Shown: positions 1,936 through 60,866 of the stretch, piece by piece | How positions within the stretch are numbered: position 1 is the stretch's first letter | How the letters are laid out: each line of letters begins with the position of its first letter | Source: Stegostoma tigrinum | Lineage: Eukaryota | Assembly: GCF_030684315.1 (NCBI RefSeq) | Contig: NC_081391.1 | Location: 21,164,629-21,228,628, forward strand | Direction: 5' to 3' | Length of the DNA: 64,000 nt | Notes under the pieces: generated by a model | What the model saw: only the letters and a program-made list of their open reading frames with translations | Database searches by the model: none | Told to the model about the DNA's origin: nothing | Translations under genes and position numbers: made by a program

Positions 1936-1959
1936 AACATAAAAGATTAATGCATTTTG

Positions 1960-3141: not shown

Positions 3142-5550
3142 ATGGCCTCCCAAGTGTGTCAGACCTACCACAAGGACTGTGAGGATGCTGTGAACAAACA
3201 GATCAACCTGGAGCTTTATTCCTCCTATGTTTACCTCTCCATGGTGAGACTTGTGATCTTGAATGGTCTATTTCAGTGTTAGGGCTGTGATATGATTGTA
3301 CTGAGCCTTTAAGTGGCTTCTTGCTCAATGATTTAGTACTACCATATATCTTGTCTGTTGTCCTTCCTGGAATGAATCCTGTGAGTGCTCTTAATACTAA
3401 TTCTGTAGCAATTTTAAGCTTGTCTTGTGTTGGAGCTGGCTCTTGTCTAGGAGTCCCCAGTATGTTGTAATTCTGGGCAGAGCACATTTTTGGTGCTGAG
3501 GGATGGCCTGGTTCTGCTTCTCAATTCAACTCCTCCTTCCATGTTGATATCAATGGCCCATTTATATTTGAAATCATTTACATCCTTGTGGAAGCCTGCA
3601 TCAGTCCAAATCTAACTTTTTATATCTTGTCCTTTTAATGAAGCCTTTTTTTTAATAAGCATCCTAACTGTGATTAACTACTGGAAATAAAAGACTAAAA
3701 TGAGCTGCTGGAAAAGCTTAGTGGGTCTGGTAGGATCTGTGGTGAGAAATCAGTTCCTGTTTTTGGTCCGGTGACCTTTCCTTCATGGTTTTTAGTTGCT
3801 AATTATGAGGAGCAGACTTTTTCCACTCCCAAGATGGATTATCTGGAACAAAAATCAGTCACTGTCTCTGTGCAGATGAGGTGTTCGGACAGTGGGGCTA
3901 AATCAGATGAGTGATGTTGGTAATGTGAGGAGCTCAGATTTCAGCTTCTCTTGGTCAACATGCACATGTCCCTTCGTTCTGTTGGACAATGCCCTGATTG
4001 GCTTCCAGCACTGGGTAATAGTGTTTCTGACCTGCAGTGCAGGGATGTCTAATGCCTGTTGCCAGCTGTGACCGTCACCGTGCACTGTCTCACCAAGTCA
4101 CCGACCAGCGGTTGTAGCAGGTGCTACTTAATCTTTATTTCTAGATGTTTGAACAAATGTCTGTCTAGTTTAGTTTATGGATGACCATAAATGTAAATAC
4201 CTGTCTTCTTACTGTCCATCTAACTTCCATTTCGTGAGCAAAACCAAGCTGAATTGAGTGAAATTTACTTCCCATTTTGTCTGTTTGCAGTTCTCTCTCT
4301 TTGACCGGGATGATGTTGCCCTCCATCACTTTGCTGAGTTCTTCAAGGAGCAGTCCCATGAGGAGCGGGAACACGCTGAGAAACTGATGGCATTCCAGAA
4401 TAAACGTGGAGGCTGAGTCCTCCTGCAGGACATCAAGGTTGGATTCTGAGAATGTCTGTCTGTTTGCAGCTTTTTGAGCAGCTACAATCGACTGGTATCT
4501 CCATCTATTTAGCTTCAGGATTGATCAAATACTATGTCAAGGGCAAGTTGTTCACCAAAACAGGATTTGTTTAGGGAAAAGGGAAATACTTTGCATTTGT
4601 GACTCAATAGCAGAAGGCAATTCAGATGATCCAGGCTACTGGATGGTGAGCACATGTCCCTGTATGTGACTCTATATGGACAAGGTGAGGTAACAAAAGG
4701 TAAGGCTGAGAACTTGCAGCTACAAAAAGCAGCAGCATCCAACCTCACTACATCCAGAAGAGGTTTGTAATGCCTTGGGACCATTCTGGTCACTACATCA
4801 AACAGTAAAGCAAGGGATTACTTCCATTGCGACTGATTCTAGATACGACTTCTTTCAGAATTCACAGTAACAGTGGGATATGTTAACATTTCTTTATTCT
4901 CAGACCAGCATAAAATCTAGAGGGTTTTTGTATCCAAGTAAAATTTTTTGTCTGAATGTAACCCCTGGAAATGATGAGGGATAACTAACTGATCAGATGT
5001 AGACTAATGATAGAACTGCCTGCTGAGCTGTGCTTTCTGTTCCTGCTTCCCTCGCTTCAGAAGCCAGAGCAGGATGAGTGCAGCAATGGTCTGGAGGTGA
5101 TGCAGAGAGCTCTGCAGATGGAGAAGGATGTGAACCAGAGTCTGCTGGATCTGCACAAACTTGCCTCTGACCACATAGACCCTCATGTGAGGTTTTATCC
5201 CTTTCCTGGTAGAAAGTGATCTGTTTGTGTACTTCCAGGGTGGGGAATCCAATTATTTTTCTACCTGCCTCCTGCAGGATGTTTAAACAAAACCTTGTGA
5301 AGGCATCACTTGCATGCCCCTCCCCCATAGGGAGGTGATGGTCACTTCTGTCATGGGAGGTCACTGACATTTTTTGATCCTTGTTGGATTAATTTTGTCT
5401 TCCAGCTGTGATTTCATGGAGAGGCACTACTTGGATAAGTAAGTGAAGATGATCAAGAAGCTGGGAGATCACATCACCAACCTGAAGAGACTGGGAGCCC
5501 CTGACAATGGCATGGGAGAGTACCTGTTTGACAGGTTCTCACTCAGCTGA
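3142..5550 (+). pseudogene. Ferritin pseudogene, type A (copy 1)
   Basis: Exons 3142-3243, 4291-4437, 5061-5186, 5406-5550 with GT-AG introns. Lesions: in-frame TGA at 4414 (CGA in intact copies); 2-bp deletion at the start of exon 4 (ctgtgatttc vs ctgtgtgacttc); CAA>TAA in exon 4. Confidence 0.93.
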
Positions 5551-6689
5551 ATGGGGTCAATATCTATCTGTTGTACATGGTGACCTCATTCTACTAAATG
5601 ACTAGTTGTTCTCTGAGCAAATTAAAAGAGTGTTCACCATGGAACTGAGTACAGTGTGTAATTTTCATAGCTTCCGGTTCTTGGAGGTTTTTTGTGTTTT
5701 AACATCTGGTAATCAAATCCATTTTCTGTTCTTTCTTGCAACCTTTGATTCAATGCCTGCCCCAGTAATTTGCTCGGTGTTTGCTTCTGCTGAGAGTCTG
5801 TAGGGATTGAGTGGGCAATCTTGTCCTTGGAAATGCCACAACTGGCAAATATCTGCATTGCAGACAATGCCACAACAAAATCTGTCCTCAGCTTTCCCAG
5901 GACAATTTTTCAGGACCAGCTTCGGCTCAAAACCATGACTGAAATCTGTCCTGTGCCTAAACATTAGGCATTGCCAAGGCCCGTCCATTCATTCAATCTT
6001 CAGCATTTTTGGAAAAACCAAGCTGACACTGGAAACCAGGAACAAAAGCTGCTGGGAAATCTCAGGTTTGGTAGTGAGAGGTGTTGAACAGAACCGGGAC
6101 ATGAGACACGTGTTTATCTCTTGAATGATTTTGTTGCCAGGCCATGAGGTGTTTTCCACCTACTTGTTCTCTTGCTTAAATCCTACTGACTTTAATAGGT
6201 CACAAAATTCCTCATTACAAGGATATAAAGTTGACCAATCGTGCAAGGTACACCTGCTTTTCTGCAACTGTTTACCATTTACATGTTTCCTGAGCTAGAG
6301 AATTGTTTCTCTAGTATGTCCTTTCCATTCAGTAGAATGAAAGCTCTGCTTTCTCCCTGACAATGCTAATGACTATGGCCTCTATTAGGCAATGAAGCAG
6401 TGCCCACCTTCTAAAGCATCTGCTGTAACTCCTGTCCTTGCTCTGCAATGCAAAGGTGACAAATGCTGAGGACACCTGATGACAATAAAGCAAAAACCAA
6501 AATACCACTTGCAGAAGTCAGTAGTTCCAATTTCCTTTACATTTAATTGTGAAGAAAATCAGCTTTCTGATGTAATCTGGCCTCCATGTGGCTCCACACA
6601 CGCTGCATTGGGTCTAGCTCATTGCTGTCAATCACAATCAGTCACTGGTTTCTAATGGATGACCACTGACAATTCCTTGACAGGATAAG

Positions 6690-6850
6690 GATGTCACTGA
6701 CCAGGCAGCATTTATCCTCTGTCTGAACTGCCCATGGGCCCATTAGTCAACTACAGTGCTTTAGGCTTGGTGTCATATACTGGCCAGACCAGGTAAGGAT
6801 GGCAGTTTGGCAGTTCCCTTCCCTGAATGACTTCAGTGAAAAGGATATTT
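6690..6850 (-). mobile_element. SINE fragment resembling shark Deu-domain SINEs (one per unit)
   Basis: ggccagaccaggtaaggatggcagtt..ccttccct...agtgaa and cagcatttat match my recollection of the antisense SacSINE1-like consensus. Not verified by search. Confidence 0.45.
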
Positions 6851-7939
6851 TATTCAGACTAGGAATTGCATGCTCATTTTTAGGTTCATAATGCCCGAAG
6901 AGAGTTTTTCAGACAGAATCAGGACAATGGGCCTCAGTCCCACACTCCAGAAGCTTAAGAGTTGCCAGCTCAGAGCAGCCACGAGATTCACTCCTTCCAC
7001 CACTGACACACAGGGACTGCAATGTGTACTATCACCAAATGTTGTAGAAATCCACCAAAGCTCCTTAGACAACACCTTCCAAAGCCCCCATTACTTGCCA
7101 TGGGACAAGGGCAGCAAATACATGGAGCACAACCGCCTCTAAGTTCTACACCAAGCCATTCACCATCCTGAATTGGAAACATGGTCCCATTCCCCTAGTG
7201 TGCTGGATCAGAATCCTGGAATTCCCTCCCTAACAGCATTGGGGATCTGCCTACACCAAATGGGCAACAGCAATTCAAGAAGGCAAGCCACCACATTCTC
7301 TCATCTAATGTTAGGCCTGATCTCTGAGGGTTTCAACTACCTCTGGCTGATGGTTCTTTTGTGAAATTGTCTAGTTCTAGCTCAACCACAGCTGGAGTGC
7401 TCAGTTCTAACAGCTTCGACCCAAAGATGGTTATGCACAGAATTTCTGCAATGAACTTGGACAGAGAGCTGGTTCATTGATGATAACGGTTTGTCCCAGT
7501 CCCTCTGTGTAGAAGGTTAAGGGATGGCTGTGTTTGAAATTTCAAAGAGGATTAATGGATTTGACAGAGTGGACAGACAGAATCTGTTTCTTGTCTATGG
7601 TCATTGAGGACTGTGTGCAAAATAGGATTATAATTTTCACATTACAACTAAATCATCCAGGATAGTGTCAAAAACAGCTTCTTTGTGGAGAAGATAATAT
7701 GTGCACGTGCTGTTAGATATTTATTGGGTAAGGCTTGACTTTGACAATCACTTTCTAATTTCAACACTAAAAATATGTGAATAACACATTTTGTTTGAGA
7801 AACATAGAAAGACAAAACAGGCTCAATGTTCCAAATCTGATGTGAGTACAGGAGCAGAGAGACTTTGGGTTTCAAATATGTGATTATCTGAAAGTGACCA
7901 GCCAAGATAATGCTGTTATTGAGAAGGCTGTGGTGAACC

Positions 7940-9129
7940 AAGCATGTGGATGAGGGAAGGGCAGTTGACGTGGTGTACATGGACTTCAGTAAAGCCTTTG
8001 ATAAGGTTCCACATGGTAGGCTATTGGAGAAAATACAGAGGCAGAGGATTGAGGGAGATTTAGCAGTTTGGATTAGAAACTGGCTTTCTGTAAGAAGGCA
8101 ACGAGTGGTGGTTGATGGAAAATATCCAGCCTGGAGTCAGGTCACTCGTAGTGTGCCTCAAGGATCTGCTTTAGGACCACTGCTGTTTGTCATTTTTATA
8201 AATGACTTGGACGCAGGCATAGGTGGATGGGTTAGTAAGTTTGCAGATGACACTAAAGTCGGTGGAGTGGTGGACGGTGTGGAAGAATGTTGCACGTTGC
8301 AGGGAGACTTGGATAAACTGCAGAATTGGGCTGAAAGGTGGCAAATGGAGTTCAATGCAGATAAATGTGAGTTGATTCAATTTTGGGTGAATAACAGGAA
8401 GGCAGAATACTGGGTCAATGGAAAGATTCTTGGCAGTGCGGATGTGCAGATAGATCTTGGTGTCCATGTACATAGATCCCTGAAAGTTGTCACCCAGATT
8501 GATAATGCTGATAAGAAGGCTTACCGTGTGTTAGGTTTTATTGGTAGAGGGATTGAGTTCCGGAGCCGTGATGTCATGCTGCAACTGTACAAAACGCTAG
8601 TGCGGCCTCATTTGGAATATTGCGTGCAGTTCTGGTCACCCCGTTACAGGAAGGATGTGGAAGCATTGGGAAAGGTGCAGAGGAGATTTACCAGGATGTT
8701 GCCTGGTCTGGAGCGCAGGCCCTATGAAGAAACGCTGAGGGACTTGGATCTGTTCTCATTGGAGAGAAGTAGGCTAAGAGGGGATTTAATAGAGACATAC
8801 AAGATGATCAGAGGATTAGATAGGGTGGACAGTGAGAGTCTTTTTCCGAGGATGATGACTTCAACTTGTACAAGGGGGCATAGCTACAAATTGCAGGGTG
8901 ATACATTTAAGACATTTGTCAGAGGCAGGTTCTTTGCTCAGAGAGTGGTAAGGGCGTGGAAAGCCCTGCCTGCCAATGTAGTTAACTCAGCCACGTTAGG
9001 GGCATTTAAACAGTCCTTGGATAAGCATATGGATGGTGACGTGATTGTGTAGGAGGTGGGGCTTGGATTAGCTCACAGGTCGGCGCAACATCGAGGGCCG
9101 AAGGGCCCGTTCTGCGCTGTATTGTTCTA
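7940..9129 (+). mobile_element. 5'-truncated CR1 LINE (CR1-b) with an uninterrupted 368-codon RT fragment
   Basis: ORF 7946-9052: VDVVYMDFSKAFDKVPH, VPQGSALGP, FADDTK. TSD TGAACC (7934-7939) / TGAGCC (9130-9135). Confidence 0.94.
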
Positions 9130-9135
9130 TGAGCC

Positions 9136-9722
9136 TTGTGTTTTCAAATTGAGGCATCGAGCATAAAAGCAAGGAATTGATGATACCCCTCTACAACTCA
9201 TTGGTTAGACCACATTTGCAGTGATGTGCTCAGTTCTGGGCGTGGCTTTTCAGGAAGGGCATTCAAGCCCTGGACAGAGTTCAAAGGTGATTTATAATAA
9301 TGACACCTGGAATGGGGAATTTCAGACACACGGAAAGATTAAAGAAATTGCGCTCTATTCTCCTTGGAGCAAGAAGCACTTGTTGAAGTGATCAAAATTA
9401 TCACCAATTCTGTCAGGGTAAAGGGGGATATTCTGTTTTCACCAGTGGATACGTTAGTGACGAGGGGTCACAATTTGTCAGTGAGGGAGCTCACAGTGAG
9501 AGGAGGAGAAACCTCTTCACTCAGAAAGTTGGTAGGGTTTGGTATGCGTAGCTGACAGGAGTGATGGACGCAGATTCCACAGGTGGCTTTAGAAAAGCAG
9601 CTGTATACATATATGGAAGTGGCAAATTTAGAGGGATACAGACATAGGGCTGGAGAGTGGGGCTGGGTGTGGAATGCTTTCAGAAGCTGAATCAGGCACG
9701 ATGGGCCAAATGGCCTCCTATC
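9136..9722 (+). mobile_element. Old degenerate CR1-type LINE, 3' part interrupted by CR1-b (paralog ~30895-31480)
   Basis: Continues the fossil that starts at ~7800; same decayed motifs. Confidence 0.7.
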
Positions 9723-9817
9723 ATTAAAAATCCTCTGCATGTTCCCCCAGGAAATTCTCAGAGTTTGGAGAGGGCCTTTGTACTCCTCTCAGTGGGCACC
9801 TGTACAAGGCACCTTTA

Positions 9818-10150
9818 ATGTGGGAAAGCTGTTACACATCAGCAGAGACATGGTCCTTTACACAAGGTAGACCCAGTTCCACTGGCAAAGAAATGTTGAC
9901 TGGGGATCCCCCAACTGCTGACCTTCACCCACCGTCACAGCCAACGATAGCACACGCCTATCTTCCACCTGGATGGCCGTTGGGAACTTGTTTTGCATTG
10001 CACTTTACCAGGACCTTCCCCTCGATCGTACTGTCCTGGGTGGCCCTGCCAGGAGGTGAAATCCTCTTCAGGTATCACTCTCAGAACCAACAGAACACTC
10101 GAGGCTCTCCATCACTGCGAGGTGACAATCCACAGGCAGGAGCTGGAGGC
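9818..10150 (+). mobile_element. Highly decayed RTE-like LINE fragment (paralogs at 16763, 31576, ~38410, 50329)
   Basis: Remnants across frames resemble the LLY..ETW ... FHL ... P.QEV ... GI..TLEAL region of the RTE ORF C-terminus. Recognised by eye only. Confidence 0.35.
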
Positions 10151-10300
10151 AGGGAGATGCTGCTCAGGTACAGACCCATCACAGAATCGGAGAATTGTTG
10201 TGGCACAGCAGGCGGCCATTCGGTCCTTTGTGCCTGTACCTGTTCTGGTTGTTTTCTAATTCTGCCTGTAGAGATGTTACAAAATCTCTGGATCTGGTAT

Positions 10301-10360
10301 GGACTTGGACCAAGGCTTCCTGGTCCACAGCTAGGGACATTACCCCTGCATCACAATACC
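10301..10360 (-). mobile_element. tRNA-derived SINE head fragment (one per B/C upstream region)
   Basis: Reverse complement ggtattgtgatgcaggggtaatgtccctagc...ggtccaagtcc has degenerate Pol III A-box and B-box spacing. Confidence 0.5.
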
Positions 10361-10383
10361 CTGGCTGCACTGGTTGTACAAAC

Positions 10384-10760
10384 TTAGAATCATCGAAAAA
10401 AAATTGTTGGATTCGGCCATTCAGCCCCCTCCAGACTGCTCTGCCATTCCATGTGATTGTGGCTGATTCCATAACTCAGTCCCATCTTCCCACTCTCTCT
10501 CCATACTCTTTGATCCCTTCAGCCCTCAAAGCTGCACCCAACTGCTCCTGGAAAACATTCAAAGTTTTGGCCTCAAATGTTTTCTGTGGCAGAGAATTCC
10601 ACAGGACCCCCACTCTCTCGGTGAAGAGATTTCTCCTCATCTCAGTCCTAAATGTGTACTTAGGCTGTGACCCCTGGTCCTGAACTTTTCCATCATCAGG
10701 AACATCCTTCCTGTCTTTTCCACAGCTGACACTATGACAATTTTCGATGACCCCGAGCCA
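10384..10760 (-). mobile_element. Antisense CR1 3' fragment (paralogs ~17330-17680, ~32142-32510, ~38980-39330, ~50897-51245)
   Basis: Minus-strand ORF contains FRTEMRRNLFTERVGVLWNSLPQK, typical of the CR1 ORF2 C-terminus. Confidence 0.75.
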
Positions 10761-11245
10761 ATTTCCCACCTTTCTTTCCCAAATCCCAGCACAACAGGCT
10801 GAGAAACTGACACTCCCCTTCCTCAATGAGTCCCTTCTGCAGTTGATCACAACCACCATAATTTAAAAACAAAACGAGCAATCTTTTCTCAAACCATATT
10901 TACTTCTTTTAAAAAAGAACCAAATGACCCATGACCTGATTGAGTGCTGCAGAAGGTTTGAGATGCCGAATGGCCTCCTGCTGTTCCAATCACAGAATAA
11001 CCATCCAGACCTGGCTCTCATCTCCACCTCTGATCAGCTCTGCTTAACACACCCTCCCCCTCTCTCTCATTGGTGCCTGCATCCAAGGGTCATTCCTGAT
11101 TGGCTAGCAGCAACTGTCAGTCATCATCAGTTCGGTCTCCCTCTGGGTGAGTGCCGGTTGTCTCAGGAGTAGAAACACAACAGCTTTGGGGATTGAGGCC
11201 TTTGTTCCAGAGTTGTCCTTGTGATTGTGAGCAGGAATAGTGAAG

Positions 11246-13765
11246 ATGGCTTCCCAAGTGTGTCAGAACTACCACAAGGACTGTGAGGATGTTGTTAACA
11301 AGCAGATCAACCTGGAGCTCTATTCCTCCTATGTTTACCTCTCCATGGTGAGCTTTGTGGAATTGAAGCCTGTGTGATAACAGTGTTGACCTGTTTGGGT
11401 TTTTATGCTGGGTTAATGACTTAGCTGTAGCATGTATTGTTTTCTGTGGCCCTTCCCCTGATGCAATCTCGTGCAAGTCCTAACACTGACTCTCTGTTCA
11501 GGTTTTGAACACTGTCTTAATATACAACTGGCTCCTGGGTGTGGATCCCCAGTTGTCCATCTCGGGACAGTGTAGCCCTTGGTGATTGTTTTCATTGAAC
11601 TCTGGAGGGTTGAGCTGGTTTTGCTGATAAATTTAACTTGGTTATATCCCTTTTCTTCAGAAAACCTGTCCTGGTAGGACACAAATGTCTCCTTTTGTTT
11701 GAACCTTGCCCCATTTGCCAGACTGGCTTATGTTCAAGATCTAAAGTTCCCTTAACTAAAGACAGCAACTGCTGGAAATCAAACAGCAACAAGAATAGCT
11801 AGAAAAGTTCTACAGATCTGCAAGGAATGGCGGAAGAAATCCGGTCAAATTTTGGGTCCACTGACCCTTGCTCAGTGTGTTTTGTGAGCTATGACAAGTG
11901 GCACACACTTGAAATATTAACTCGTGTACAACAAAGCAGTTAGAATTCTGTGTGGAGTGGGTGGTAGGACACTAGGGTTATTCAGGTGGGTGATGGTGAT
12001 AATGAGGCTGCTGACTGAGATTTCTGGCTGTGTTAATGACTGACTGCATTATTCATAGCATTTCATTCAGTTGGACAGGGGTCTAACTAGTCTCCACCTC
12101 GCGAACAATAATGTTTTATCACCTGCAGAACAGGGATATCTAATGGCTATAGACAGCTGTCCCCTTCATTGTGCACCATGCCACACTCTATCGCACCATT
12201 TTAGCAAAACACAGGTGAGGGATTGCATTTGGTTTTTGTCCTCTATTTCCAGAAGTCTGGCTAAGTATCTGTTACATGGGTTATAATCCATGGAAGGTGA
12301 CTTCCTGGCTCTCTCTAGTTTTGCCCACTTAAATGTGGAGTCAAGATGGTAACTGGGTTAGTATCTGAGAAGAGGCATTGATGTATTTTAGACATTTCCC
12401 TTTATTGCCTCTTTCCCCCGACAGGTCTCTTACTTTGACCGGGATGATGTTGCCCTGCGTCACTTGGCTGAGTTCTTAAAGGAGCAGTCCCATGAGGAGC
12501 GGGAACACGCTGAGAAACTGATGGCTTTCCAGAATAAACGTGGAGGCCGAATCCTCCTGCAGGACATCAAGGTTGCATTCCAAAGCTTTCTTTTGCCGCT
12601 TTTTGTGAAATACCACTCAATTGTGGCTAGCTCAATCTGTTTAGCTTCAGGACTGAGCAAATACTGTATGAATGGGGGGGGGGGGTTGCTCACCACAATA
12701 CGATTCCCTTCACTAAAAGGAAACACTTTTGCACGTGATTGAACAATAGTTGGCAATTGTGATAATCCAGTATTCTGGATGGTGAGCAAATATCGGTGTC
12801 TACTGCTGCTTTGGACAAGATGAGGTGTCAAAAGGGAAAACAGAAATCTTTCAGGTGTGGAAAGCATCAGTATGAAGCCTTAATACATCTAGAAGATGTT
12901 TCTGATGCCTTGTGATTACTCTGATCACAGCATAGCAGGATCTGTTTAGAAATGTCCCCTTCAAGAACAGTACCAAATACAGCAGGTGTTTCACCAAGGT
13001 CAAGTCGGCCTGTAGTACTTCCCCTACAATGATGAGGGATAATTAACTGATCAGATGTAGACTAATGATACAACTGCCTGCTGAAATCAGAATATCCTGC
13101 TTTACTCTGACAAAATTGATCATAGTTTTGATCACGTCAATAAGGTCACCTACAAGGAGATTTCCCCCATTTTCCTTAATCTTTCCGTGTATCTAAAATT
13201 CCCCATTCCTGGGGTCATCGTAATAAATCACCTTTGAACACTTTTGAGGTTTTTCACATCCTTCCTTGAATGTCATGCCCAGAACTGAGTACATAATGGA
13301 AATGTGGTCTAACCAATGATTTGTAGAGGTGTAACATCAATTCGTTGCTTTTATACTCGATGCCTCAATTTGAAATTGAATTTGTATTTAAATCTGGGTT
13401 TCTGAATAAAAACAGTGATCAGACACTTGGTCCTTTTTGTTAGCCACAAGATCTCATTTGACATTGTGGAGGGTTTTCTTGGGTTATACCAACATCCTCC
13501 TGTTTCTAAAACTGAGCACTTTCGAAAGTATTTGGCAATCTCCATGACATCACTTCACTGTTCGGTCTCCCAAGCTGCATTTGGTCAGATTTAACCAGTT
13601 CCCCTCTTTGTCTTCCAGCTGTATGACTTCCTGGAGAGGCACTACCTGGATGAGCAAGTGAAGATGATCAAGAAGCTGGGAGATCACATCACCAACCTGA
13701 AGAGACTGGGAGCCCCTGACAATGGCATGGGAGAGTACCTGTTTGACAGGCTCTCACTCAGCTGA
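11246..13765 (+). pseudogene. Ferritin gene, B/D chimera lacking exon 3 (copy 2)
   Basis: Exon 1 11246-11347, exon 2 12425-12571 and exon 4 13619-13765 are open. Exon 3 and its splice sites are absent and replaced by the inverted insertion at 13078-13375. Confidence 0.88.
13078..13375 (-). repeat. 298-bp inverted copy of 16104-16401 (old CR1 fossil segment) inserted in ferritin copy 2
   Basis: ctgctgaaatcagaatatcctgc...tgcctcaatttgaaa is the reverse complement of tttcaaattgaggca...gcaggatattctgatttcagcag; one mismatch seen. Confidence 0.95.
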
Positions 13766-15959
13766 ATGGGGTCAATATCTATATCTGTTGTACATGGTGA
13801 CCTCATTCTACTAAATGACTAGTTGTGCTCTGAGCAAATTAAAATAGTGTTCACCATGGAACTGAGCACAGTATGTAATTTTCATAGCTTCTGGTTCTTG
13901 GAGCTTTTTGTGTTTTAATGTCTGATCATCAATCCTTTGTTCTTTGTGTCAAGCTTTTGATTCAATGCCTGCCCCAGTACCTTGATCAGTGTTTGATTCT
14001 GCTGTGTCTGGGGATTGAGTGGGCAATCCTTTTATTGGAAATTCCATAACTGGTAAGGTTGTTGACAGATAAATCAGCATTACTGACATGTACTCACAGG
14101 GACAAGTTTGCAGGACCAGCTTCTAATCAATACACTGACTGAAATCATTCCTTTGCCTAAAGGGTAGGCACTGATCTAATGCACTGCCCTTGGCCATGTG
14201 TTTGCATCTCTTTTAAATAAGGAGATTCTGGAAACCAGGAACACAACCTGCTGGGAAATCTCAGGTTGGGCAGCATTGGTAGGGAGAAGGGTTGAACAGA
14301 ACCTGGACATGAGACACTCAATCATCTCTTGATTGACTTTGTTGCCTGACAGTGAGGTGTTTTCCAGCAATTTGTTCTCATGCCTAGATGTTAGTGATTT
14401 TAGTAGTTTGTAAAATTCCTCCTTACAAGACTAAGATACAATGCTTTTCCACAGTCTCTTTTTTTCTTTGACATAAGCAATTGCTCATGTCATTGTTCCC
14501 AGAGCTAGGGAATTAGTTTCTTCAGTATTTCCTTTATACATGTAGGAGAAGGACAAATCTACCTTCTCTTAGAATGCTAACGTCTAGGAACGGCCATGCG
14601 AATGAAGCGGTGCCCACCTTGTTCCCTGTGTGATAACTTCTATTATTACCCTGCAACGAAGAGGTGACAAATACTGAGGATGCCTGGTGGAAAATCAAGC
14701 TAAAATACAAATACCATGTGCAGAATCGGCAGTTCCAATTTTTACGTTTTTTAATCTTCAGCAGGAGAGCTGATCTGGCTGACCTGTGACTCCAAACAGT
14801 GCACTGTGGTGGCCTAATCACTATCAATCAGCCCTGAATTACAATGTGACTGGTTTGTGTAAGGGCTTTAACAGGATCAGGCTATCACTGACAGGCAGCA
14901 TTTATTATCCATCTCTGATTACCCACCCAGCCCATGAGTAATTCAAATTAAACCCCTTTGCTCTGCCTGTGGCGTTACGCAAAGGCCCGATCAGGTAAGG
15001 ATGGCAGTTTCTTACGAACAAGGACATTAGTGAACCAGAAGAGGCTTGTTTGGACCATCTCTTCTGGAAAGAGAATGATGTGCATGAAATTCTGTCAAGT
15101 CAGACAGTATCAGGATTACAGGTGTCAGTCTAACACTCCAGAATGTTGACAGCCTCCAGCAAACGAGCAGCCACTTTCGTCTATCCTTCCACCACTGACA
15201 TACGCAGAGACTGTAATATATACCATCTACCAAATGCTGTAGGAATCCACCAAAGCTCCTCAGACAACTTCTTAAAATTCTGACTACTTTCCATCGGACA
15301 AGGGCAGATGATATGTGGGAACACCACGTTCTACACCAAACCACCGATCAGCTGGTGTTGGAAACATCGCTCCCAGGTTCCCTCCCGAACAGCAGTATGG
15401 GTTTGATTACACCAAATGGGCAACAGTAATGCAAGAAGGCAAGTCACCACATTCTCTAAACTAATGTTGGCCCTGATCTCTGAGGGGTTCAAATACCTCT
15501 GGATGAAGAGATTTTGGTGAAATGGTCAAGTTCCTGTTCAACCACAGCCGGAGTGCACAGTTCTGGCAGGTTCGACCCAAAGATGGTTATGCACAGAATT
15601 TCTGGAAGTAACCTGGACAGAGTGATGGTTAATTCATGATAACGGCTTGTCTAGTCCCTCTGTGTAGGAAGTTAAGGGATGGCTGTAATTGATAATTTTC
15701 AGAGGATTAATGGATTTGACAGGGTAGAGAGGAAAGAACCCATTTCTTCTCAATGATCATCTCGGACTGTGCGCAGAATGGGATGACAATCTTCACGTGA
15801 GAATTACATCATCCAGGATAATATCAAAAACAAATTTCTTTGTGGAAGGGACAATATCTGCACACACAGATATTTACTGCACAAGGTTTGATGTTGCCAA
15901 TCACTTTCCAATTTCAACAAAAAAAAGTGAGTAATGCATTTTTGTCGAAGAAACACAAA

Positions 15960-16680
15960 GTCAAAACAGGCTCGATGTTACAAATCTGATGTGAGTACAG
16001 GAGCTCAGCGACTTTCAGTTTCAAGTATGTGATTATCTGAAAGTGGTCAGGCAGGATGAAGCTGTTATTAATGGAGATTGAGCCACTTTTGTGAACCTTG
16101 TGTTTTCAAATTGAGGCATCGAGTATAAAAGCAACGAATTGATGTTACACCTCTACAAATCATTGGTTAGACCAAATTTCCATTATGTACTCAGTTCTGG
16201 GCATGACATTCAAGGAAGGATGTGAAAAACCTCAAAAGTGTTCAAAGGTGATTTATTACGATGACCCCAGGAATGGGGAATTTTAGATACACGGAAAGAT
16301 TAAGGAAAATGGGGGAAATCTCCTTGTAGGTGACCTTATTGACGTGATCAAAACTATGATCAATTTTGTCAGAGTAAAGCAGGATATTCTGATTTCAGCA
16401 GTTGACTTGTCAGTGACGAGGGGTCACAGTTTGTCAGTAGGGGAGATCAGAGTGAAATGGTTAGAAAACTCTTTGCTCAGAAAGTTGTTCGGATTTGGAA
16501 TGTGCTGCCTGGGAGAGTGACGGAGGTCGATTCCATGGTTGGTTTCAGAACAAGAGTTGGATATGTCCTTGGAAGTGACGAATTTAGAGAGTGACAGAGA
16601 TAGGGCTGGAAAGTGAGACTAATCAGGTAGCTCTTTCAGAAGCTATTACAGGAACGGTGGGCTGAACGGCCTCCTGTTGT
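15960..16680 (+). mobile_element. Old degenerate CR1-type LINE, uninterrupted 'empty-site' version (paralogs ~37615-38327, ~49527-50245)
   Basis: Homologous to 1960-2690. Shows gtgaaccttgtgttttc without the CR1-b insertion. Confidence 0.7.
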
Positions 16681-17994
16681 GAAAAACGCTCTGAATTTCC
16701 ACTCAGGAAATTCTGAGAGTTTGGGGACGGGGTTTGAATTCCACCTGTAGAAGGCACCTTTAATGTGGGAAAGCTGTTACACGCCAGCAGAGACATGGTC
16801 CTTTACACAAGGTAGACCCAGTTCCACTGGCAAAGAAATGTTGACTGGGGATCCCCCCACTGCTGACCAACACCCACTGTCACAGCCAACGATCGCACAC
16901 ACCTATCTTCCACCTGGATGGCCGCTGGGGACTGGTTTTGCATTGCACTTTATCAGGACCCTCCCCTCGATCGTACCATCCTGGGTGGCGCTGCCAGGAG
17001 GTGAAATCTTCTTCAGGTATCACTCTGAGAAACAACACAACACTTGAGGCTCTCCATCACTGCGAGGTGACAATCCACAGGCAGGAGCTGGAGGCAGGGA
17101 GATTCTGCTCAGGTACAGACCCACCACAGAATCGGAGAATTGTTATGGCACAGCAGGAGGCCATTCGGTCCTTTGTGCCTGTACCTGTTCTGGTTGTTTT
17201 CTAAATCTGCCTGTGGAGATGATTTAAGATCTCTGGATCTGGTAGGAACTTGTACCAAGGCCTCCTGGTCCACAGCTAGGGACATGACCCCTTAACCACA
17301 AGACCCTGGCTGCGCTAGTTGCACAAACGTGGAATCATAGAAAATAAATGTTGAGTCGGCCATTCATCCCTTCCAGCCTGCTCTGCCATTCCATGTGATT
17401 GTGGCTGATTCCATAACTCAGCACCATATTCTCACCCTCTCTGCATTCCCTTTTGATCCAGCCCTCAAAGCTCTCCCCAATTCCTGTTTTGGCTTCAATC
17501 CTTTTCTGTGGCAGAGAATTCCACAGGATCCACCACCCCGCCCCCCGAGGTGAAGAGATTTCTCCTCACCTCAGTTCTAAATGTATCCTTAGACTGCAAA
17601 CCCTGGTCCTGAACTCCCCCATAATCAGGAACATCCTTCCCGTCTTTTCCACAGCTGACACTGTTGCAATTTTCTATGACCCAGAGACAATTTCCCAACT
17701 TTCTTTCCCAAATCCCAGCATAACAAGCTGAGAAACTGATGCCCCTCTTCCTCATTGAATCCCTCGTGCAGTTGCTCACAACCACCTTAATTAAAAAAAA
17801 TGTGAAAACTTTTCTCAAACCAAATTGACTTATTTTAAAAAAGAACCAAATAACACACGACCTGAGTGAGTGGTGCAGAAGGTTTGAGATGCCGAATGGC
17901 CTCCTGCTGTTCCAGTCACAGAATAACCATCCAGACCTGGCTCTCATCTCCACCTCTGATCAGCTCTGCTTAACACACCCTCCCCCTCTCTCTC

Positions 17995-18104
17995 ATTGGT
18001 GCCTGTATGCTGCGGTGGTTCCTGATTGGCCAGCAGCAACTGTCAGTCATCATCAGTTCTGCCTCTCTCTGTGTGACTGCAGGATGGTCCCAGGACTATA
18101 AATA
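17995..18104 (+). promoter_or_regulatory. Pol II core promoter of copy 3: two inverted CCAAT boxes plus TATA
   Basis: ATTGG at 17995 and 18025; TATAAATA at 18097-18104, ~70 nt upstream of the ATG. Confidence 0.75.
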
Positions 18105-18173
18105 CAAGAGCCTGTGGGAGAGAGAGACTTAGTTCTAGAGTTTTCTTGGTGCTTGTGAGCAGGAATAGTGAAG

Positions 18174-20447
18174 ATGGTTTCCCAAGTGTGTCAGAACTAC
18201 CACAAGGACTGTGAGGATGCTGTTAACAAGCAGATCAACCTGGAGCTCTATTCCTCCTATGTTTACCTCTCCATGGTGAGCTTTGTGGAATTGAAGCCTG
18301 TGCTATGATAGTGTTGACCTGTTTGGTTTTTATGCTGAGTTAATGAATTAGCTGTATCATGTATTATTTTCTGTGGCCCTTCCCCTGTTGCAATCTAGTG
18401 CAGGTCTTAACACTGACTCTCTGTTTTGTCTTCATGTCCAACTGGCTCCTGGATGTGGATGCCCAGCTTGCTGTCTCTGGACAATGTAACCCTTGGTGAT
18501 TTTTCATCTAACTCTGGAGGGATGATCTGGTCTTGGTCAATAATTAATTTTTGTAAAACTTTGGTTGTATTCCTTTTCTCAACAAAAGCCTTCCCTGGTG
18601 GAAACTTTTGCTGACACAAATATACTCCTTTTTTCAAACCTTGCCCTATTCACCGGACTGTCTTGTGCTCAAGATGTAAAGTTCCCTGAACTAAAAGAAC
18701 AGCTGCTGCTAGACATTAAACACTAACAAAAATAGCTAGAAAAGCTCTACAGAGCTGGAAGAAATCCAAGCTCTGGGTCCATTGACCCTTTCTCAGAAGT
18801 GGCTTTGAGCTATGCAATGTGAGGAAAGGGGCACATTTTCAGACTGTGTGTTTTTTTTCTTTCTCTCTAACAAAGCAGTTAAAATTCTGTGGAGTGGGTG
18901 GTAGGACACTGCGGTTATTCAGGTGGGTGATAGTGATAATGAGACTGCTGACTGAGCTTTCTGGTTGTGTTAATGAACACATGTCCCTTCATTCAGTTGG
19001 ACAGGGGCTGAACTGGTCTCCACCTCCTGAACAATAGTGTTTCTAACCTGCAGAGCAGGGATGTCTAATGGCTATAGACAGCTCTCCCCTTCATCATCCA
19101 TGGAAGGTGACTTGCTGCTTTGTCTGTTTTATTTTTAACCACTTAAATGTGGAATCAAGATGGTGCCCAGGTTAGTTCCAGAGTGAGGAGTGTCAGTCAT
19201 GAATTTCAGACAGTTTCCTTTTAGCCTCTCTCTTCCCACAGTTCTCTTACTTTGACCGGGATGATGTTGCCCTGCATCACTTTGCTGAGTTCTTCAAGGA
19301 GCAGTCCCATGAGGAACGGGAACACGCTGAGAAACTGATGGCATTCCAGAATAAACGTGGAGGTCGAGTCATCCTGCAGGACATCAAGGTTAGATTCTGA
19401 AGCCTTCTGTTTGCAGCTTTTTGTGAGCAGCTACAATCGACTGGTATCTCCATCTATTTAGCTTTAGCCTTGAACAAATACTGTGTGAAGGGGAGGTTGT
19501 TCACCAAAATAGGATTCCTTTAGGTGAAAGGAAATACTCTGCACTTATGAGGGCAATTGAGAGGAACCAGAATAGTGAGTAGACATCAATGTGAATGACT
19601 CTCCTTCAGACAGAATGAGGTAACAAAAGCTAAGACAGGAAATTGTTGCAGTGTGGAAAGTAGCAGTGTCCAGCCTTTCTGAATCTGGAAGATGTTTCTA
19701 ACACCACAATAGTGAAGCCAGGAATTACTTCCATTGGTACCTATTCTCTACATGTGAATTCTGAGAATCTACATTAACAGTAGAATGTGTTTAGAAAATT
19801 TGTTATTCCCTCAGTACAAAATCTAGTTGTTGTCTTCAAATTCAAGTTGGTTTGCAGTACCTCCCCTACAATGATGAGGGATAACTAACTGATCAGATGT
19901 CGACTAATGATACAACTGCCTGCTGAACTGTGCTTTCTGTTCCTGCTTCCCTCCCTCCAGAAGCCAGAGCAGGATGAGTGGGGCAGTGGTCTGGAGGCAA
20001 TGCAGAGAGCTCTGCAGATGGAGAAGGATGTGAACCAGAGTCTGCTGGATCTGCACAAACTCGCCTCTGGCCACACTGACCCTCATGTGAGTTTGTAAAC
20101 TTTCTTCTTGGAAGAAAGTGGTGTGTTTGTGCACTCTCTGGGTAAAAATCCAATTACCTTCTCCCAGCCTCCTGCAGGCTGTTAAAACAAACTTACAAAT
20201 GCATCACCTCAGTGGACCTCCACCTGGTTGTGATGGTCACATCTGTCATGGGGGTCACTTTCAGACACTTTTGATCCTCTGGATTAATTTTCTCTTCCAG
20301 CTGTGTGACTTCCTGGAGAGGCAATACTTGGATGAGCAAGTGAAGATGATCAAGAAGCTGGGAGATCACATCACCAACCTGAAGAGATTGGGAGCCCCTG
20401 ACAATGGCATGGGAGAGTACCTGTTTGACAGGCTCACACTCAGCTGA
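18174..20447 (+). CDS. Ferritin heavy/middle-subunit-like protein, type C (copy 3), 173 aa, intact
   Basis: join(18174-18275,19242-19388,19961-20086,20301-20447). [34 protein letters not shown] / [49 protein letters not shown] / [10 protein letters not shown]...DPH / [15 protein letters not shown]...DRLTLS*. Canonical splice sites and the vertebrate ferritin 4-exon layout. Confidence 0.95.
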
Positions 20448-20515
20448 ATGGGGTCAATAATGTGTATGTTGTACATGGTGACATAATGCTAGTAACTTGG
20501 TTGTGCTCTGAGCAA

Positions 20516-20521
20516 ATTAAA
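20516..20521 (+). terminator. Polyadenylation signal ATTAAA of copy 3 (equivalents at 13838, 35469, 42284, 54081)
   Basis: ATTAAA ~70 nt after the stop codon, at the same position in every copy. Confidence 0.65.
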
Positions 20522-22529
20522 ATAGTGTTCACCATGCAACTGAGTACTTTGCATAATTTCACAGCTGCTTCTGGCTCTTGGTATTGCTGTTTGACACCTG
20601 ATCATGAAGTGTTTTTCTGTTCTGATTAACCTTTGATTCAATGCCTGCCCCACTGGTTTGCTCCTTTTTCTCTTGTTTGTAGGAATTAGGTGGGCAATCC
20701 TTGTAGTGGAAATTCCACAAGTGTTCAGTTTGGGTTTTTTGGCTAGTAAGCAGTGTTGTATTGACTTTTTTATTCCAAACCAGCTTCTGGTCAATATCTT
20801 CAGTGAAACCAGCCCCCTGTCTCAATGTTAGACACTGCCCTTGCAAATGTTTAGGTCTCTTTTGTAAATAAGCAGGGGCAGGAAATAGCAGGTTTGGGGA
20901 GCATCTGTGGAGAGAAAACTGTTCAGTCCCAGGACCCAAGCTTTCCAGCAATTTTGTTGTCGCACTTCAAATCTAATGATTTGAGCATACATTTACTCTT
21001 TTTGGAACAGGAATATATATATAGCAGAACATCCAGCATTTCAGATGCACTGATCTTTAGCATTTAGATAAGCAATTGTGTCCAGATCTGGGAAATTGGT
21101 TTCTCTCTTTTGCTGCGGTGGTGGAAGGAGTGAGGGCAGTGGCTGTTTGTAGGAGAATGGCAGAGTTTGTTTTCTTGTGTATCAGTCTCTCTGCTTCTAG
21201 ACAATGATCCTGATTAGGTAATGAAGCAGTCCCCACCTTCGAGCCCCTGTGGTAGAACTTCTATCACTTCTCTGCAGTCTAAGGACGCCAAATGCTCATG
21301 ACACCAGGAGAAAATAAAGCTCCAACCCAAATGCCACTGGTAGAAAGCAGCAGTTCCTATTCTTAGCAAGGAAATAAGCTCTCCTGATGTAGATTGACTG
21401 ACTGGAATGTACCTACACCTGCAGAGCACTCTGGCTGCCTAATTACTGATGCTCAGGGGTGACAGATTCCTTTATAAAAAGGATGAGGATGTCTCTGAGC
21501 TGACACCATTTATTTATCCATTTCCGATTGCCCCCTGCCAAAGCCAGGTCAGAGTGTCACGCTTTGCTGTGGTTGCAGTGTCATATGCAGGCCAGACTAA
21601 GTAAGGATGCATTTTTGACACTGAATTTAATGCTACTCATCAGTTTCTTAATTCTAGAACTCCAGAGAGTTGTTGCACAGAATTAGAAGATCAGTCCACC
21701 ACTCCAGAAATGTGATGGCCTCCCGCTCCCACCAGCCACGAGATTCATTCTTTGCACCACTGACACACACAGAGTACACTGTGTACTGCCTCCCAAAAGC
21801 TGCAGAAATCCACCATCGCTCCTGAGACAATACTTTCCATAGCCCTAATTATGTGCCATGGGAGAAAAGCATCTGATACAGGGGAACACCACCCCCTCTA
21901 ACTACTCCACCAAGCGACATGCCATCCTGAGTTGGAAACGTGACCCGCCATGCTCCAGGGTCGGTGGATCAGAATCCTGGAATTCCCTCACTCAGAACAT
22001 TATGGATCTGACGACAGCAAATAGGCACCAGCAATTCAAGAAGGAAAGCCACCACATTCTCTCATGGTGAGCCTGATCTCAGACCGGGTCCAATACCTCG
22101 GGATGGGCCTTCTTTTGTGAAATTGTCAAGTCCTAGTTCAACCCCATCTGGAGTGCACTGTTCCAGTAGGTGCAATCCAAAGATGCTTATGCACAGAATT
22201 TCTGGAATGAACCTGGGCAGAAAGTTAATTGGCTACGATGATAATAGTTTTCCCAAGTCTCTCGGTGTAGAAGTGGAAGGGATGTCTGTGCTTGAAATTT
22301 ACAAGTGGATTCATGGATTTGATAGGGTAGATAGAGAGATCCTGCTTCTTTTCAATTCCATTCCAGGACCGAGAGTGGGGAATATGATTACATTCCTAGT
22401 AGTAGAAGTAAATCATCCATGATAAAGCAAAAAACAGCTGCTTTTTGGAAAGGATAATATGTGAATGAGCAGTTAGATATTTATTCGGTAAGATATTGAT
22501 GTTGCCAATCACTTTCCCATTGCAACATA

Positions 22530-33003: not shown

Positions 33004-35396
<2,393 letters not shown>

Positions 35397-45472: not shown

Positions 45473-45514
45473 AACATAAAAGATGAATGCATTTAAGATT
45501 ATCTTCATTAGAAG

Positions 45515-46124: not shown

Positions 46125-47332
46125 TTCTCTTACTTTGACCGGGATGATGTTGCCCTGCGTCACTTTGCTGAGTTCTTCAAGGAGCAGTCCCATGAGGAGC
46201 GGGAACACACTGAGAACCTGATGGCTTTCCAGAATAAACGTGGGGGCCGAATCCTCCTGCAGGACATCAAGGTTAGATTCTGAAGCCTTCTGTTTGCAGC
46301 TTTTCGTGAAATACCACTCAATTGTGGCTCGCTCAATCTGTTTAGCTTCAGGACTGAGCAAATACTGTATGAATGGGGGGGTTGCTCACCACAATACGAT
46401 TCCCTTCACTAAAAGGAAACACTTTTGCACGTGATTGAACAATAGTTGGCAATTGTGATAATCCAGTATTCTGGATGGTGAGCACATATCGGTGTCTAAC
46501 GCTGCTTTGGACAACATGAGGTGTCAAAAGGGAAAACAGAAATCTTTCAGGTGCGGAAAGCATCAGTATGAAGCCTTTATACATCTCAAGATGTTTCTGA
46601 TGCCTTGATATCACTCTGATCACAGCATAGCAGGATCTGTTTAGAAATGTCCCCTTCAAGAACAGTACCAAATACAGCAGGTGTTTCACCAAGGTCAAGT
46701 TGGCCTGTAGTACCTCCCCTACAATGATGCGGGATAACTAACTGATCAGATGTAGACTAATGATACAACTGCCTGCTGAGCTGTGCTTTCTGTTCCTGCT
46801 TCCCTCCCTCCAGAAGCCAGAGCAGGATGAGTGGGGCAATGGTCTGGAGGCAATGCAGAGAGCTCTGCAGATGGAGAAGGTTGTGAACCAGAGTCTGCTG
46901 GATCTGCACAAACTGGCCTCTGGCAACACAGACCCTCATGTGAGTGTGGTGTATTTAAATCTGGGTTTCTGAATAAAAACAGTGATCAGACACTTGGTCC
47001 TTTTTGTTAGCCACAAGATCTCATTTGACATTGTGGAGGGTTTTCTTGGGTTATACCAACATCCTCCTGTTTCTAAAACTGAGCACTTTCGAAAGTATTT
47101 GGCAATCTCCATGACATCACTTCACTGCTCGGTCTCCCAAGCTGCATTTGGTCAGATTTAACCAGTTCCCCTCTTTGTCTTCCAGCTGTGTGACTTCCTG
47201 GAGAGGCACTACCTGGATGAGCAAATGAAGATGATCAAGAAGCTGGGAGATCACATCACCAACCTGAAGAGACTGGGAGCCCCTGACAATGGCATGGGAG
47301 AGTACCTGTTTGACAGGCTCACACTCAGCTGA
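46125..47332 (+). pseudogene. 5'-truncated ferritin pseudogene, type D (copy 7; exons 2-4 only)
   Basis: Exon 2 46125-46271 (acceptor AG>GG at 46123-46124), exon 3 46814-46939, exon 4 47186-47332. Only ~100 bp of intron 1 remains (from ~46021), preceded by LINE sequence. There is no promoter or exon 1. Confidence 0.9.
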
Positions 47333-51560: not shown

Positions 51561-51670
51561 ATTGGTGCCTGTATGCAGGGGTGGTTCCTGATTGGCCAGC
51601 AGCAACTGTCAGTCATCATCAGTTCTGCCTCTCTCTGTGTGACTGCAGCATGGTCCCAGGACTATAAATA
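51561..51670 (+). promoter_or_regulatory. Core promoter of copy 8: two inverted CCAAT boxes plus TATA
   Basis: ATTGG at 51561 and 51591; TATAAATA at 51663-51670. Confidence 0.75.
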
Positions 51671-51739
51671 CAAGAGCCTGTGGGAGAGAGAGACTTAGTT
51701 CTAGAGTTTTCTTGGTGCTTGTGAGCAGGAATAGTGAAG

Positions 51740-58457: not shown

Positions 58458-60866
58458 ATGGCCTCCCAAGCGTGTCAGAACTACCACAAGGACTGTGAGG
58501 ATGCTGTGAACAAGCAGATCAACCTGGAGCTTTATTCCTCCTATGTTTACCTCTCCATGGTGAGACTTGTGATCTTGAATGGTCTATTTCAGTGTTAGGG
58601 CTGTGATATGATTGTACTGAGCCTTTAAGTGGCTTCTTGCTCAATGATTTAGTACTACCATATATCTTGTCTGTTGTCCTTCCTGGAATGAATCCAGTGA
58701 GTGCTCTTAATGCTAATTCTGTAGCAATTTTAAGCTTGTCTTGTGTTGGAGCTGGCTCTTGTCTAGGAGTCCCCAGTATGTTGTAATTCTGGGCAGAGCA
58801 CATTTTTGGTGCTGAGGGATGGCCTGGTTCTGCTTCTTAATTCAACTCCTCCTTCCATGTTGATATCAATGGCCCATTTATATTTGAAATCATTTACATC
58901 CTTGTGGAAGCTTGCATCAGTCCAAATCTAACTTTTTATATCTTGTCCTTTTAATGAAGCCTTTTTTTTAATAAACATCCTAACTGTGATTAACTACTGG
59001 AAATAAAAGACTAAAATGAGCTGCTGGAAAAGCTTAGTGGGTCTGGTAGGATCTGTGGTGAGAAATCAGTTCCTGTTTTTGGTCCGGTGACCTTTCCTTC
59101 ATGGTTTTTAGTTGCTACTTATGAGGAGCAGACTTTTTCCACTCCCAAGATGGATTATCTGGAACAAAAATCAGTCACTGTCTCTTGTGCAGATGAGGTG
59201 TTAGGACAGTGGGGCTAAATCAGATGAGTGATGTTGGTAATGTGAGGAGCTCAGATTTCAGCTTCTCTTGGTCAACATGCACATGTCCCTTCGTTCTGTT
59301 GGACAATGCCCTGATTGGCTTCCAGCACTGGGTAATAGTGTTTCTGACCTGCAGTGCAGGGATGTCTAATGCCTGTTGCCAGCTGTGACCGTCACCGTGC
59401 ACTGTCTCACCAAGTCACCGACCAGGGGTTGTAGCGGGTGCTACTTAATCTTTATTTCTAGATGTTTGAACAAATATCTGTCTAGTTTAGTTTATGGATG
59501 ACCATAAATGTAAATACCTGTCTTCTTACTGTCCATCTAACTTCCATTTCGTGAGCAAAACCAAGCTGAATTGAGTGAAATTTACTTCCCATTTTGTCTG
59601 TTTGCAGTTCTCTCTCTTTGACCAGGATGATGTTGCCCTCCATCACTTTGCTGAGTTCTTCAAGGAGCAGTCCCATGAGGAGCGGGAACACGCTGAGAAA
59701 CTGATGGCATTCCAGAATAAACGTGGAGGCTGAGTCCTCCCGAGGACATCAAGGTTGGATTCTGAGAATGTCTGTCTGTTTGCAGCTTTTTGAGCAGCTA
59801 CAATCGACTGGTATCTCCATCTATTTAGCTTCAGGATTGATCAAATACTATGTCAAGGGCAAGTTGTTCACCAAAACAGGATTTGTTTAGGGAAAAGGGA
59901 AATACTTTGCATTTGTGACTCAATAGCAGAAGGCAATTCAGATGATCCAGGCTACTGGATGGTGAGCACATGTCCCTGTATGTGACTCTATATGGACAAG
60001 GTGAGGTAACAAAAGGTAAGGCTGAGAACTTGCAGCTACAAAAAGCAGCAGCATCCAACCTCACTACATCCAGAAGAGGTTTGTAATGCCTTGGGACCAT
60101 TCTGGTCACTACATCAAACAGTAAAGCAAGGGATTACTTCCATTGCGACTGATTCTAGATACGACTTCTTTCAGAATTCACAGTAACAGTGGGATATGTT
60201 AACATTTCTTTATTCTCAGACCAGCATAAAATCTAGAGGGTTTTTGTATCCAAGTAAAATTTTTTGTCTGAATGTAACCCCTGGAAATGATGAGGGATAA
60301 CTAACTGATCAGATGTAGACTAATGATACAACTGCCTGCTGAGCTGTGCTTTCTGTTCCTGCTTCCCTCCCTCCAGAAGCCAGAGCAGGATGAGTGGGGC
60401 AATGGTCTGGAGGTGATGCAGAGAGCTCTGCAGATGGAGAAGGATGTGAACCAGAGTCTGCTGGATCTGCACAAACTTGCCTCTGACCACATAGACCCTC
60501 ATGTGAGGTTTTATCCCTTTCCTGGAAGAAAGTGATCTGTTTGTGTACTTCCAGGGTGGGGAATCCAATTATTTTTCTATCTGCCTCCTGCAGGATGTTT
60601 AAACAAAACCTTGTGAAGGCATCACTTGCATGCCCCTCCCCCATAGTGAGGTGATGGTCACTTCTGTCATGGGAGGTCACTGACATTTTTTGATCCTTGT
60701 TGGATTAATTTTGTCTTCCAGCTGTGATTTCATGGAGAGGCACTACTTGGATAAGCAAGTGAAGATGATCAAGAAGCTGGGAGATCACATCACCAACCTG
60801 AAGAGACTGGGAGCCCCTGACAATGGCATGGGAGAGTACATGTTTGACAGGCTGCCACTCCGTTGA
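58458..60866 (+). pseudogene. Ferritin pseudogene, type A (copy 9)
   Basis: Exons 58458-58559, 59608-59753, 60377-60502, 60722-60866. Lesions: TGA at 59731; 1-bp deletion in exon 2; 2-bp deletion in exon 4. Confidence 0.93.

Follow-up and report, generated by a model that had tools for sequence, protein, structure and literature searches.

The sequence examined here, referred to as the window, is the 64,000 nucleotides at positions 21,164,629 to 21,228,628 (forward strand) of contig NC_081391.1 in the Stegostoma tigrinum assembly GCF_030684315.1, and it carries nine ferritin loci in tandem. We consider it probable that the window belongs to the tandem ferritin cluster already known from elasmobranchs, shaped by turnover and gene conversion, whose genes would encode a cytosolic M-type subunit without an iron-responsive element (IRE) and with a job in the oocyte or ovary. 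The array itself is already published in kind, as the tandem ferritin clusters of sharks.

Structure and state of the ferritin loci

Exon searches and splicing by coordinate revealed nine loci on the plus strand, running from an ATG at position 3142 to a stop codon at 60866 in the order A1, B1, C1, A2, B2, C2, B3, C3, A3, where the letters denote unit types (Table 1). Exons 1 to 4 gave 8, 9, 8 and 9 matches in the window, respectively. Open reading frames (ORFs) of 173 codons are intact at four of the nine loci (C1, B2, C2 and C3), and the remaining five (A1, A2, A3, B1 and B3) are disabled. These results confirm the original prediction, which had proposed nine same-strand copies, four intact and five disabled. 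Its description of them as four-exon genes holds for seven loci but not for B1, which has lost exon 3, or for B3, which has lost exon 1 together with its promoter. Introns are of the GT-AG type in all seven four-exon loci. Exons 2 and 3 matched the Pfam family PF00210; exons 1 and 4, searched singly against Pfam, scored below threshold.

A1, A2 and A3 all have a stop in place of codon 76 and have lost 2 nt from exon 4. The TATA box, located 74–77 nt above the ATG, is found in six of the eight loci that retain exon 1 and in neither of the B copies among them, and an ORF and a TATA box occur together in only three of the nine loci, C1, C2 and C3. B2, which combines an intact ORF with three private changes, is possibly a decaying copy.

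The repeat had also been predicted to continue past both edges. Window position 1 aligns with position 21757, between C1 and A2, and position 64000 aligns with 30441, between A2 and B2. Because both ends align with intergenic parts of internal units, the array likely extends beyond them, although no gene was seen outside the window. Over the 64 kb, Tandem Repeats Finder returned no rows, ARAGORN no genes, and Rfam no match at the gathering level.

Table 1. Features of the window, with positions counted from its first nucleotide
Feature	Position	Strand	Remarks
Ferritin A1, pseudogene	3142..5550	+	exons 3142-3243, 4291-4437, 5061-5186, 5406-5550; R76 stop, 2-nt deletion in exon 4, Q138 stop; TATA box present, distal promoter block gone
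Ferritin B1, disabled	11246..13765	+	exons 11246-11347, 12425-12571, 13619-13765; no exon 3; TATA box altered
Ferritin C1, intact, 173 aa	18174..20447	+	exons 18174-18275, 19242-19388, 19961-20086, 20301-20447; TATA box at -77; ATTAAA 69 nt past stop
Ferritin A2, pseudogene	24899..27307	+	R76 stop; deletions of 1 nt in exon 2 and 2 nt in exon 4
Ferritin B2, ORF intact	33004..35396	+	no TATA box; private changes Q4R, Y26C, S56F
Ferritin C2, intact, 173 aa	39823..42215	+	TATA box present
Ferritin B3, 5'-truncated	46125..47332	+	exons 2-4 only; exon-2 acceptor mutated
Ferritin C3, intact, 173 aa	51740..54012	+	TATA box present
Ferritin A3, pseudogene	58458..60866	+	frameshifts and stop identical to those of A2
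Intron-2 element, A1	4971..5026	+	34 nt above exon 3; Rfam sR1, 36.4 bits, E 4.6e-8 in 201 nt, gathering 45
Intron-2 element, B1	13029..13084	+	retained; rearrangement begins at its box D
Intron-2 element, C1	19871..19926	+
Intron-2 element, A2	26728..26783	+
Intron-2 element, B2	34784..34839	+
Intron-2 element, C2	41630..41680	+	5-nt deletion destroys box D'
Intron-2 element, B3	46724..46779	+	box C mutated
Intron-2 element, C3	53436..53491	+
Intron-2 element, A3	60287..60342	+
Distal promoter block	17824..18030	+	about 200 nt; ends in two reverse CCAAT boxes; counterparts before B1, B2, C2
Recent segmental duplicate	1..13084	+	counterpart 21757-34839; 143 substitutions in 13076 columns, 1.09%
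Recent segmental duplicate	13383..30441	+	counterpart 46950-64000; 121 substitutions in 17028 columns, 0.71%
Inverted insertion	13085..13382	-	in place of B1 exon 3
526-nt segment	45495..46020	+	at the junction of a deletion that took out an A gene and the 5' portion of B3; single copy in window
A-type LINE reverse-transcriptase 3' fragment	776..1929	+	PF00078; recurs before A2, A3 and at 44299-45466
B-type LINE reverse-transcriptase 3' fragment	7937..9131	+	PF00078; about 75% identical to A-type; 371-aa open frame

Nested duplications and probable gene conversion

Three ages of duplication can be distinguished. The oldest separates the unit types, which differ by 0.19–0.50 in introns and by 0.32–0.38 in 3' flanks; a middle tier lies at 7%; and the recent blocks, 8.7–17 kb long, are 0.7–1.1% divergent. 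The recent duplications took in dead genes no less readily than live ones, and raised the nonsense-bearing A gene to three copies. Because they multiplied a dead gene, the recent turnover looks indifferent to function.

One of the recent duplication alignments, that of positions 1–13084, stops exactly at box D of a small intronic element (described below), and this is also the point at which the inverted insertion of B1 starts. Positions 13078–13375 are 99.7% identical over 298 nt to positions 16104–16401, which lie 3 kb downstream in inverted orientation, and the junction shows 7 nt of microhomology at the same box D. These features are consistent with the replacement of B1 exon 3 by template switching.

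The exons tell a different story from the introns. Synonymous divergence (dS) between unit types is 0.04–0.16, compared with the intron values given above, and it was below intron divergence in all three pairs tested (Fisher p of 2e-4, 3e-5 and 2e-7). Furthermore, the affinities of the types shift along the gene, with A and B closest in the 3' untranslated region (3'UTR; 0.037), A and C in intron 3 (0.24), and B and C in intron 1 (0.19). Because dS is far under intron divergence and the affinities switch along the gene, the sequences suggest that gene conversion, acting on top of birth-and-death, keeps exons more alike than introns. The nested duplications and the death of five of the nine loci are in keeping with the predicted birth-and-death by unequal crossing-over, but that account is incomplete in that it leaves out the conversion to which the exon–intron contrast points. 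Conversion templated by cDNA was considered and is disfavoured, the 140 nt above the ATG, leader included, not being homogenised (0.71–0.83 between types). We also observed a block in intron 1, at about 19010–19075, whose conservation between types (0.73–0.90) is above that of its surroundings.

Protein identity and phylogeny

Among the best 120 of 248 matches of the exon-2 protein search, the top ones are gene models from Stegostoma, Chiloscyllium and Rhincodon, and many other sharks follow. The full-length window proteins are 92–94% identical to the closest carpet-shark ferritins, and their best PDB matches are M ferritins; the ferritin fold of the proteins is certain. The alignment showed that the ferroxidase residues E24, E58, E59, H62, E104 and Q138, as well as the M-type nucleation residues E54 and E61, are kept in all four intact copies; both lists are those given in PMC4117605. 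The N-termini are like those of cytosolic ferritins and carry no extension, so that the secretory role suggested in the original prediction finds no support. A cysteine occupies position 6 in place of the usual arginine in the window copies and in many shark array members, and Met141 is common to the aligned array members; the window copies end at 173 aa, and their relatives at 173 or 176 aa.

A tree was calculated from 69 rows, comprising the four window proteins and 65 named references hand-picked from the homology search listings; the selection omitted unnamed sequences, fragments and the majority of fused models, and it contained no FTL. The window copies fall inside a 26-row clade of elasmobranch multi-copy ferritins (100/99), which is grouped largely by order and takes in models of a sawfish and of nine further shark genera. 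The FTH1 clade (98/91), which includes skate and chimaera orthologs, excludes the array clade, and a conserved shark/ray ferritin paralog forms a separate clade (100/96). The comparison with mammalian FTH1 and FTL from which the prediction had started is misleading because the window genes form their own clade. A single clade of the array and two teleost fth1b proteins was rejected (approximately unbiased (AU) test, p 0.007) in a test that was set up after the tree had been seen.

The conserved shark/ray paralog (P0115, P0123, P0126, P0128 and P0133) was found on contigs of the same size as those of array members in five species. This observation suggests that the paralog and the array lie on one chromosome, and the paralog is a possible parent locus. 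Two further sequences, P0112 and P0163, are vertebrate-type ferritins filed under bacterial names, probably through contamination.

Promoter and leader

From the position of the TATA box, the start site would lie such that the leader is about 45 nt long. We detected no IRE in the Rfam scans; a motif scan found none in the eight leaders and gave four loose matches in the 64 kb, none of them in a leader. A candidate IRE remnant upstream of the A-type TATA box was rejected, as no stem there passes the scan and the candidate sits above the inferred start. The distal promoter block is 86–100% identical (in 50-column windows) between B and C units despite their divergent introns, and A units are without it. 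At about 18045–18060, some 120 nt above the ATG, a 15-nt motif that recurs at this place in all unit types is invariant in five aligned copies and adjoins an E-box-like word; we regard it as a candidate regulatory site.

Proposed mechanism and alternatives

We propose that an old three-gene unit (A, B and C) was re-duplicated in blocks, presumably by unequal crossing-over, and that copies would be lost through nonsense mutation, frameshift, deletion and template switching. Gene conversion would at the same time hold the exons much more alike than the introns. The live copies are probably the three C genes, which would supply a cytosolic 173-aa subunit predicted to be active from its complete ferroxidase centre and M-type nucleation glutamates. 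Their mRNA would have a short leader and no IRE, so output would be governed by transcription and copy number and not by iron. The likely job, judged from other sharks, would be to store iron in bulk and to provide antioxidant buffering in oocytes or the ovary. An oocyte role, one of those suggested in the original prediction, would be in line with what is reported for the Greenland shark cluster, which holds more than 150 copies and is expressed specifically in the ovary (Sahm et al. 2024, bioRxiv 10.1101/2024.09.09.611499). Zebrafish follicles are rich in ferritin mRNA (PMC1488847).

Several observations weigh against this proposal. The tree has no FTL rows, and its backbone is unresolved, also with regard to monophyly of the array with M ferritins. 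An upstream non-coding exon may carry an IRE. Only 11 of 465 pairs of informative coding sites are incompatible and most sites track unit type, which implies that the types exchanged sequence by conversion long ago or do so slowly. Part of the low dS could be due to synonymous sites being constrained (third-position GC content of 0.66–0.68). A comparison of nonsynonymous (N) and synonymous (S) changes among the intact copies, recommended along with the original prediction, gave 6 N and 4 S private changes, and purifying selection on them is not significant either against neutrality (p 0.24) or against the 17 N and 2 S private changes of the dead copies (p 0.14). In addition, Yang et al. (2026, PNAS, PMC13214024) saw some copies transcribed in fin and blood, and ovary restriction is therefore not absolute.

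The same fin and blood transcripts bear on a different explanation, namely that the array reflects dosage selection for protection of somatic tissue from ferroptosis or oxidative stress, an idea put forward for both the Greenland shark and the hadal snailfish. Yang et al. raise such protection as a speculation, overexpression of snailfish fthl27 lowered reactive oxygen species in cells (PMC10746142), and changes common to several of our copies lean synonymous (21 N, 13 S; p 0.02). However, a selected dosage sits poorly with the scarcity of loci that combine an ORF with a TATA box and with recent duplications that spread dead copies. High copy numbers also occur in sharks without long lifespans (PMC13214024), and expression was ovary-specific according to Sahm et al. 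We consider this explanation quite unlikely; the dosage selection that had been predicted fared weakly, given a dead A gene amplified to three copies and private changes that show no significant constraint.

That much of the array is a false duplication of the assembly, an objection foreseen in the original prediction, appears very improbable. The A2 and A3 regions differ by 2–11 substitutions per kb and could be allelic, and the same could hold for the closest pairs, which differ by 0.3–1%. At least six loci, on the other hand, are non-allelic, because three A copies cannot all be alleles and because copies divergent by 7% and by 19–50% exist; these three A copies and older tiers mean that false duplication does not explain the whole array. 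The junctions are unique and have a coherent mechanism, and clusters of this kind are found in two independent Greenland shark assemblies (Sahm et al.; PMC13214024).

A box C/D-like element in intron 2

Intron 2 contains a 56-nt element, first met as a weak Rfam match, with boxes C, D', an imperfect C' and D in canonical order. It is present in all nine loci and its boxes are intact in seven, the exceptions being C2 and B3. A search of the window with a profile of the element returned nine matches, all of them already known. In our literature collection, which is incomplete, we found no report of a small nucleolar RNA (snoRNA) in ferritin genes, and the element is apparently undescribed in the literature searched.

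It is possible, although doubtful, that the element is a real box C/D small RNA, that the array is a multi-copy snoRNA cluster and that the promoter-bearing dead copies act as its non-coding hosts. Between types the element, which is conserved to the same degree as the exons, shows 0–2 substitutions, whereas the remainder of intron 2 is 22–29% divergent (Fisher p 3e-4 to 7e-6), and its conservation begins sharply at box C, which is the 5' edge of the conserved block in all three types. Of the six splice flanks, only the one bearing the element is conserved over 90 nt; at the remaining five, identity falls off within 30–60 nt in most pairs. Of 2000 simulated intron sets, one contained the full box pattern, which was written after the element had been seen. 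C/D families provide the best Rfam matches, and the element is intact in four of the five protein-disabled copies. The flank comparison, the 5' edge at box C and the rarity of the full pattern argue against the explanation to which we give a little short of an even chance. In this explanation the boxes are coincidental, and the 90 nt above exon 3 serve in splicing, as branch point and pyrimidine tract, or are a passenger in conversion tracts centred on exon 3. In its favour, element, tract and exon 3 form a single continuous block of 88–100% identity, branch-point-like words can be read in the sequence of the element, and a simple C...D pattern occurred in 378 of the 2000 simulated sets. Other non-coding blocks, in the promoters of B and C and in the 3'UTRs of A and B, are homogenised too. 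Intron ends beside snoRNAs can be conserved and overlap branch points (PMC10324135), a pattern that cuts both ways for a snoRNA.

Other features of the element speak against a functional snoRNA. Its scores are under the Rfam gathering thresholds and its best family, sR1, is one that we take to be archaeal. The four copies that were folded differ in fold and have no consistent terminal stem, the adjoining 34-nt pyrimidine tract is equally conserved, and box D' is lost in C2, an intact gene. No complement to ribosomal RNA (rRNA) of at least 9 contiguous bp was found by eye in the -5 register in zebrafish and human 18S or zebrafish 28S. The best contiguous match, also by eye, is 7 bp in 28S and would direct methylation to a C that precedes Gm2411 by two bases; this C corresponds to human C2409 and is presumably methylated in human. 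It is not on the zebrafish list of PMC7668251, and the zebrafish SNORD sequences compared from that source gave no match to the element; a motif search of the zebrafish snoRNAome supplement (PMC11880993) gave nothing. A second 28S site pairs by eye over 6 + 4 bp across one mismatch. The element lies just 34 nt from the acceptor. In ribosomal-protein hosts the median is 109 nt, and the medians of snoRNA-to-acceptor distance in PMC13736004 are all 109 nt or more. The D' guide can pair over 10 bp with the guide of zebrafish SNORD1, a match that we judged likely to be chance.

A coding extension of exon 3 into the 90 nt was rejected because they contain an in-frame stop. In gene models of other sharks, the translated intron block was found in none of the seven array-like proteins among 147 new representatives, nor in one further candidate; a whale-shark isoform shows only a similar pyrimidine tract. 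The broader idea that every ferritin gene of the shark clusters hosts an orphan box C/D RNA, making the tens to hundreds of ovary-expressed copies a large oocyte snoRNA cluster in which protein-dead copies still serve as non-coding hosts and selection on the RNA, beside that on ferritin dosage, helps the array to persist, we judge unlikely.

Mobile elements

Fragments of long interspersed nuclear elements (LINEs) accompany the A and B units at nearby yet distinct sites, beside an older remnant common to all types. The segment at the deletion junction upstream of B3 was read by eye as a probable LINE 3' end.

Significance and comparison with known systems

The resolution gained here tempers readings of such arrays in terms of longevity and dosage: no more than a third of the loci seem to be fully functional, and recent duplications disregard function. 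The genes appear to be an IRE-less lineage and not teleost fth1b, and a maternal supply of iron that is uncoupled from iron control thus becomes a hypothesis that can be tested. Beyond the known array, the remaining interest lies in the loss of the IRE, the doubtful published labels and the candidate snoRNA; should the element prove to be expressed, snoRNAs would have an unexpected host in ferritin genes, and the cluster would count as a small-RNA locus of high copy number.

SNORD115 and SNORD116 are tandem orphan clusters of intron-encoded box C/D snoRNAs. The window element resembles such snoRNAs in box order, intronic position and tandem multiplication, and differs from them in its ferritin host, its very short length, its closeness to the acceptor and the lack of a convincing target. 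Vertebrate FTH1 (fth1a) shares the intact ferroxidase centre and the four-exon plan with the window genes, but it belongs to a separate clade, and no IRE was found in the window genes. The amphibian and teleost M ferritins are alike in structure matches, in ferroxidase and nucleation residues and in having four exons. They differ in Cys6, Met141 and the end at 173 aa of the window proteins, and salmon M genes bear IREs (PMC4117605), which the window genes appear to lack.

The closest systems are the tandem clusters of other sharks. Yang et al. describe 59 tandem "FTH1b" copies, five of them 5'-truncated, and report that sharks generally have more copies. The window likewise holds tandem copies, truncated ones included, and its proteins fall in the clade of multi-copy ferritins of other sharks and a sawfish. 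Word searches of the main texts of Sahm et al. and Yang et al. did not find snoRNA, gene conversion, or an IRE or iron term. The published labels FTL/FTH1 and FTH1b are at odds with our tree, and its topology, including the rejected fth1b grouping, makes them doubtful. The hadal snailfish provides another tandem ferritin amplification in fish, with 14 copies of fthl27 that are recent and broadly expressed (PMC10746142), whereas the shark array is old, common across sharks and made up in large part of dead copies.

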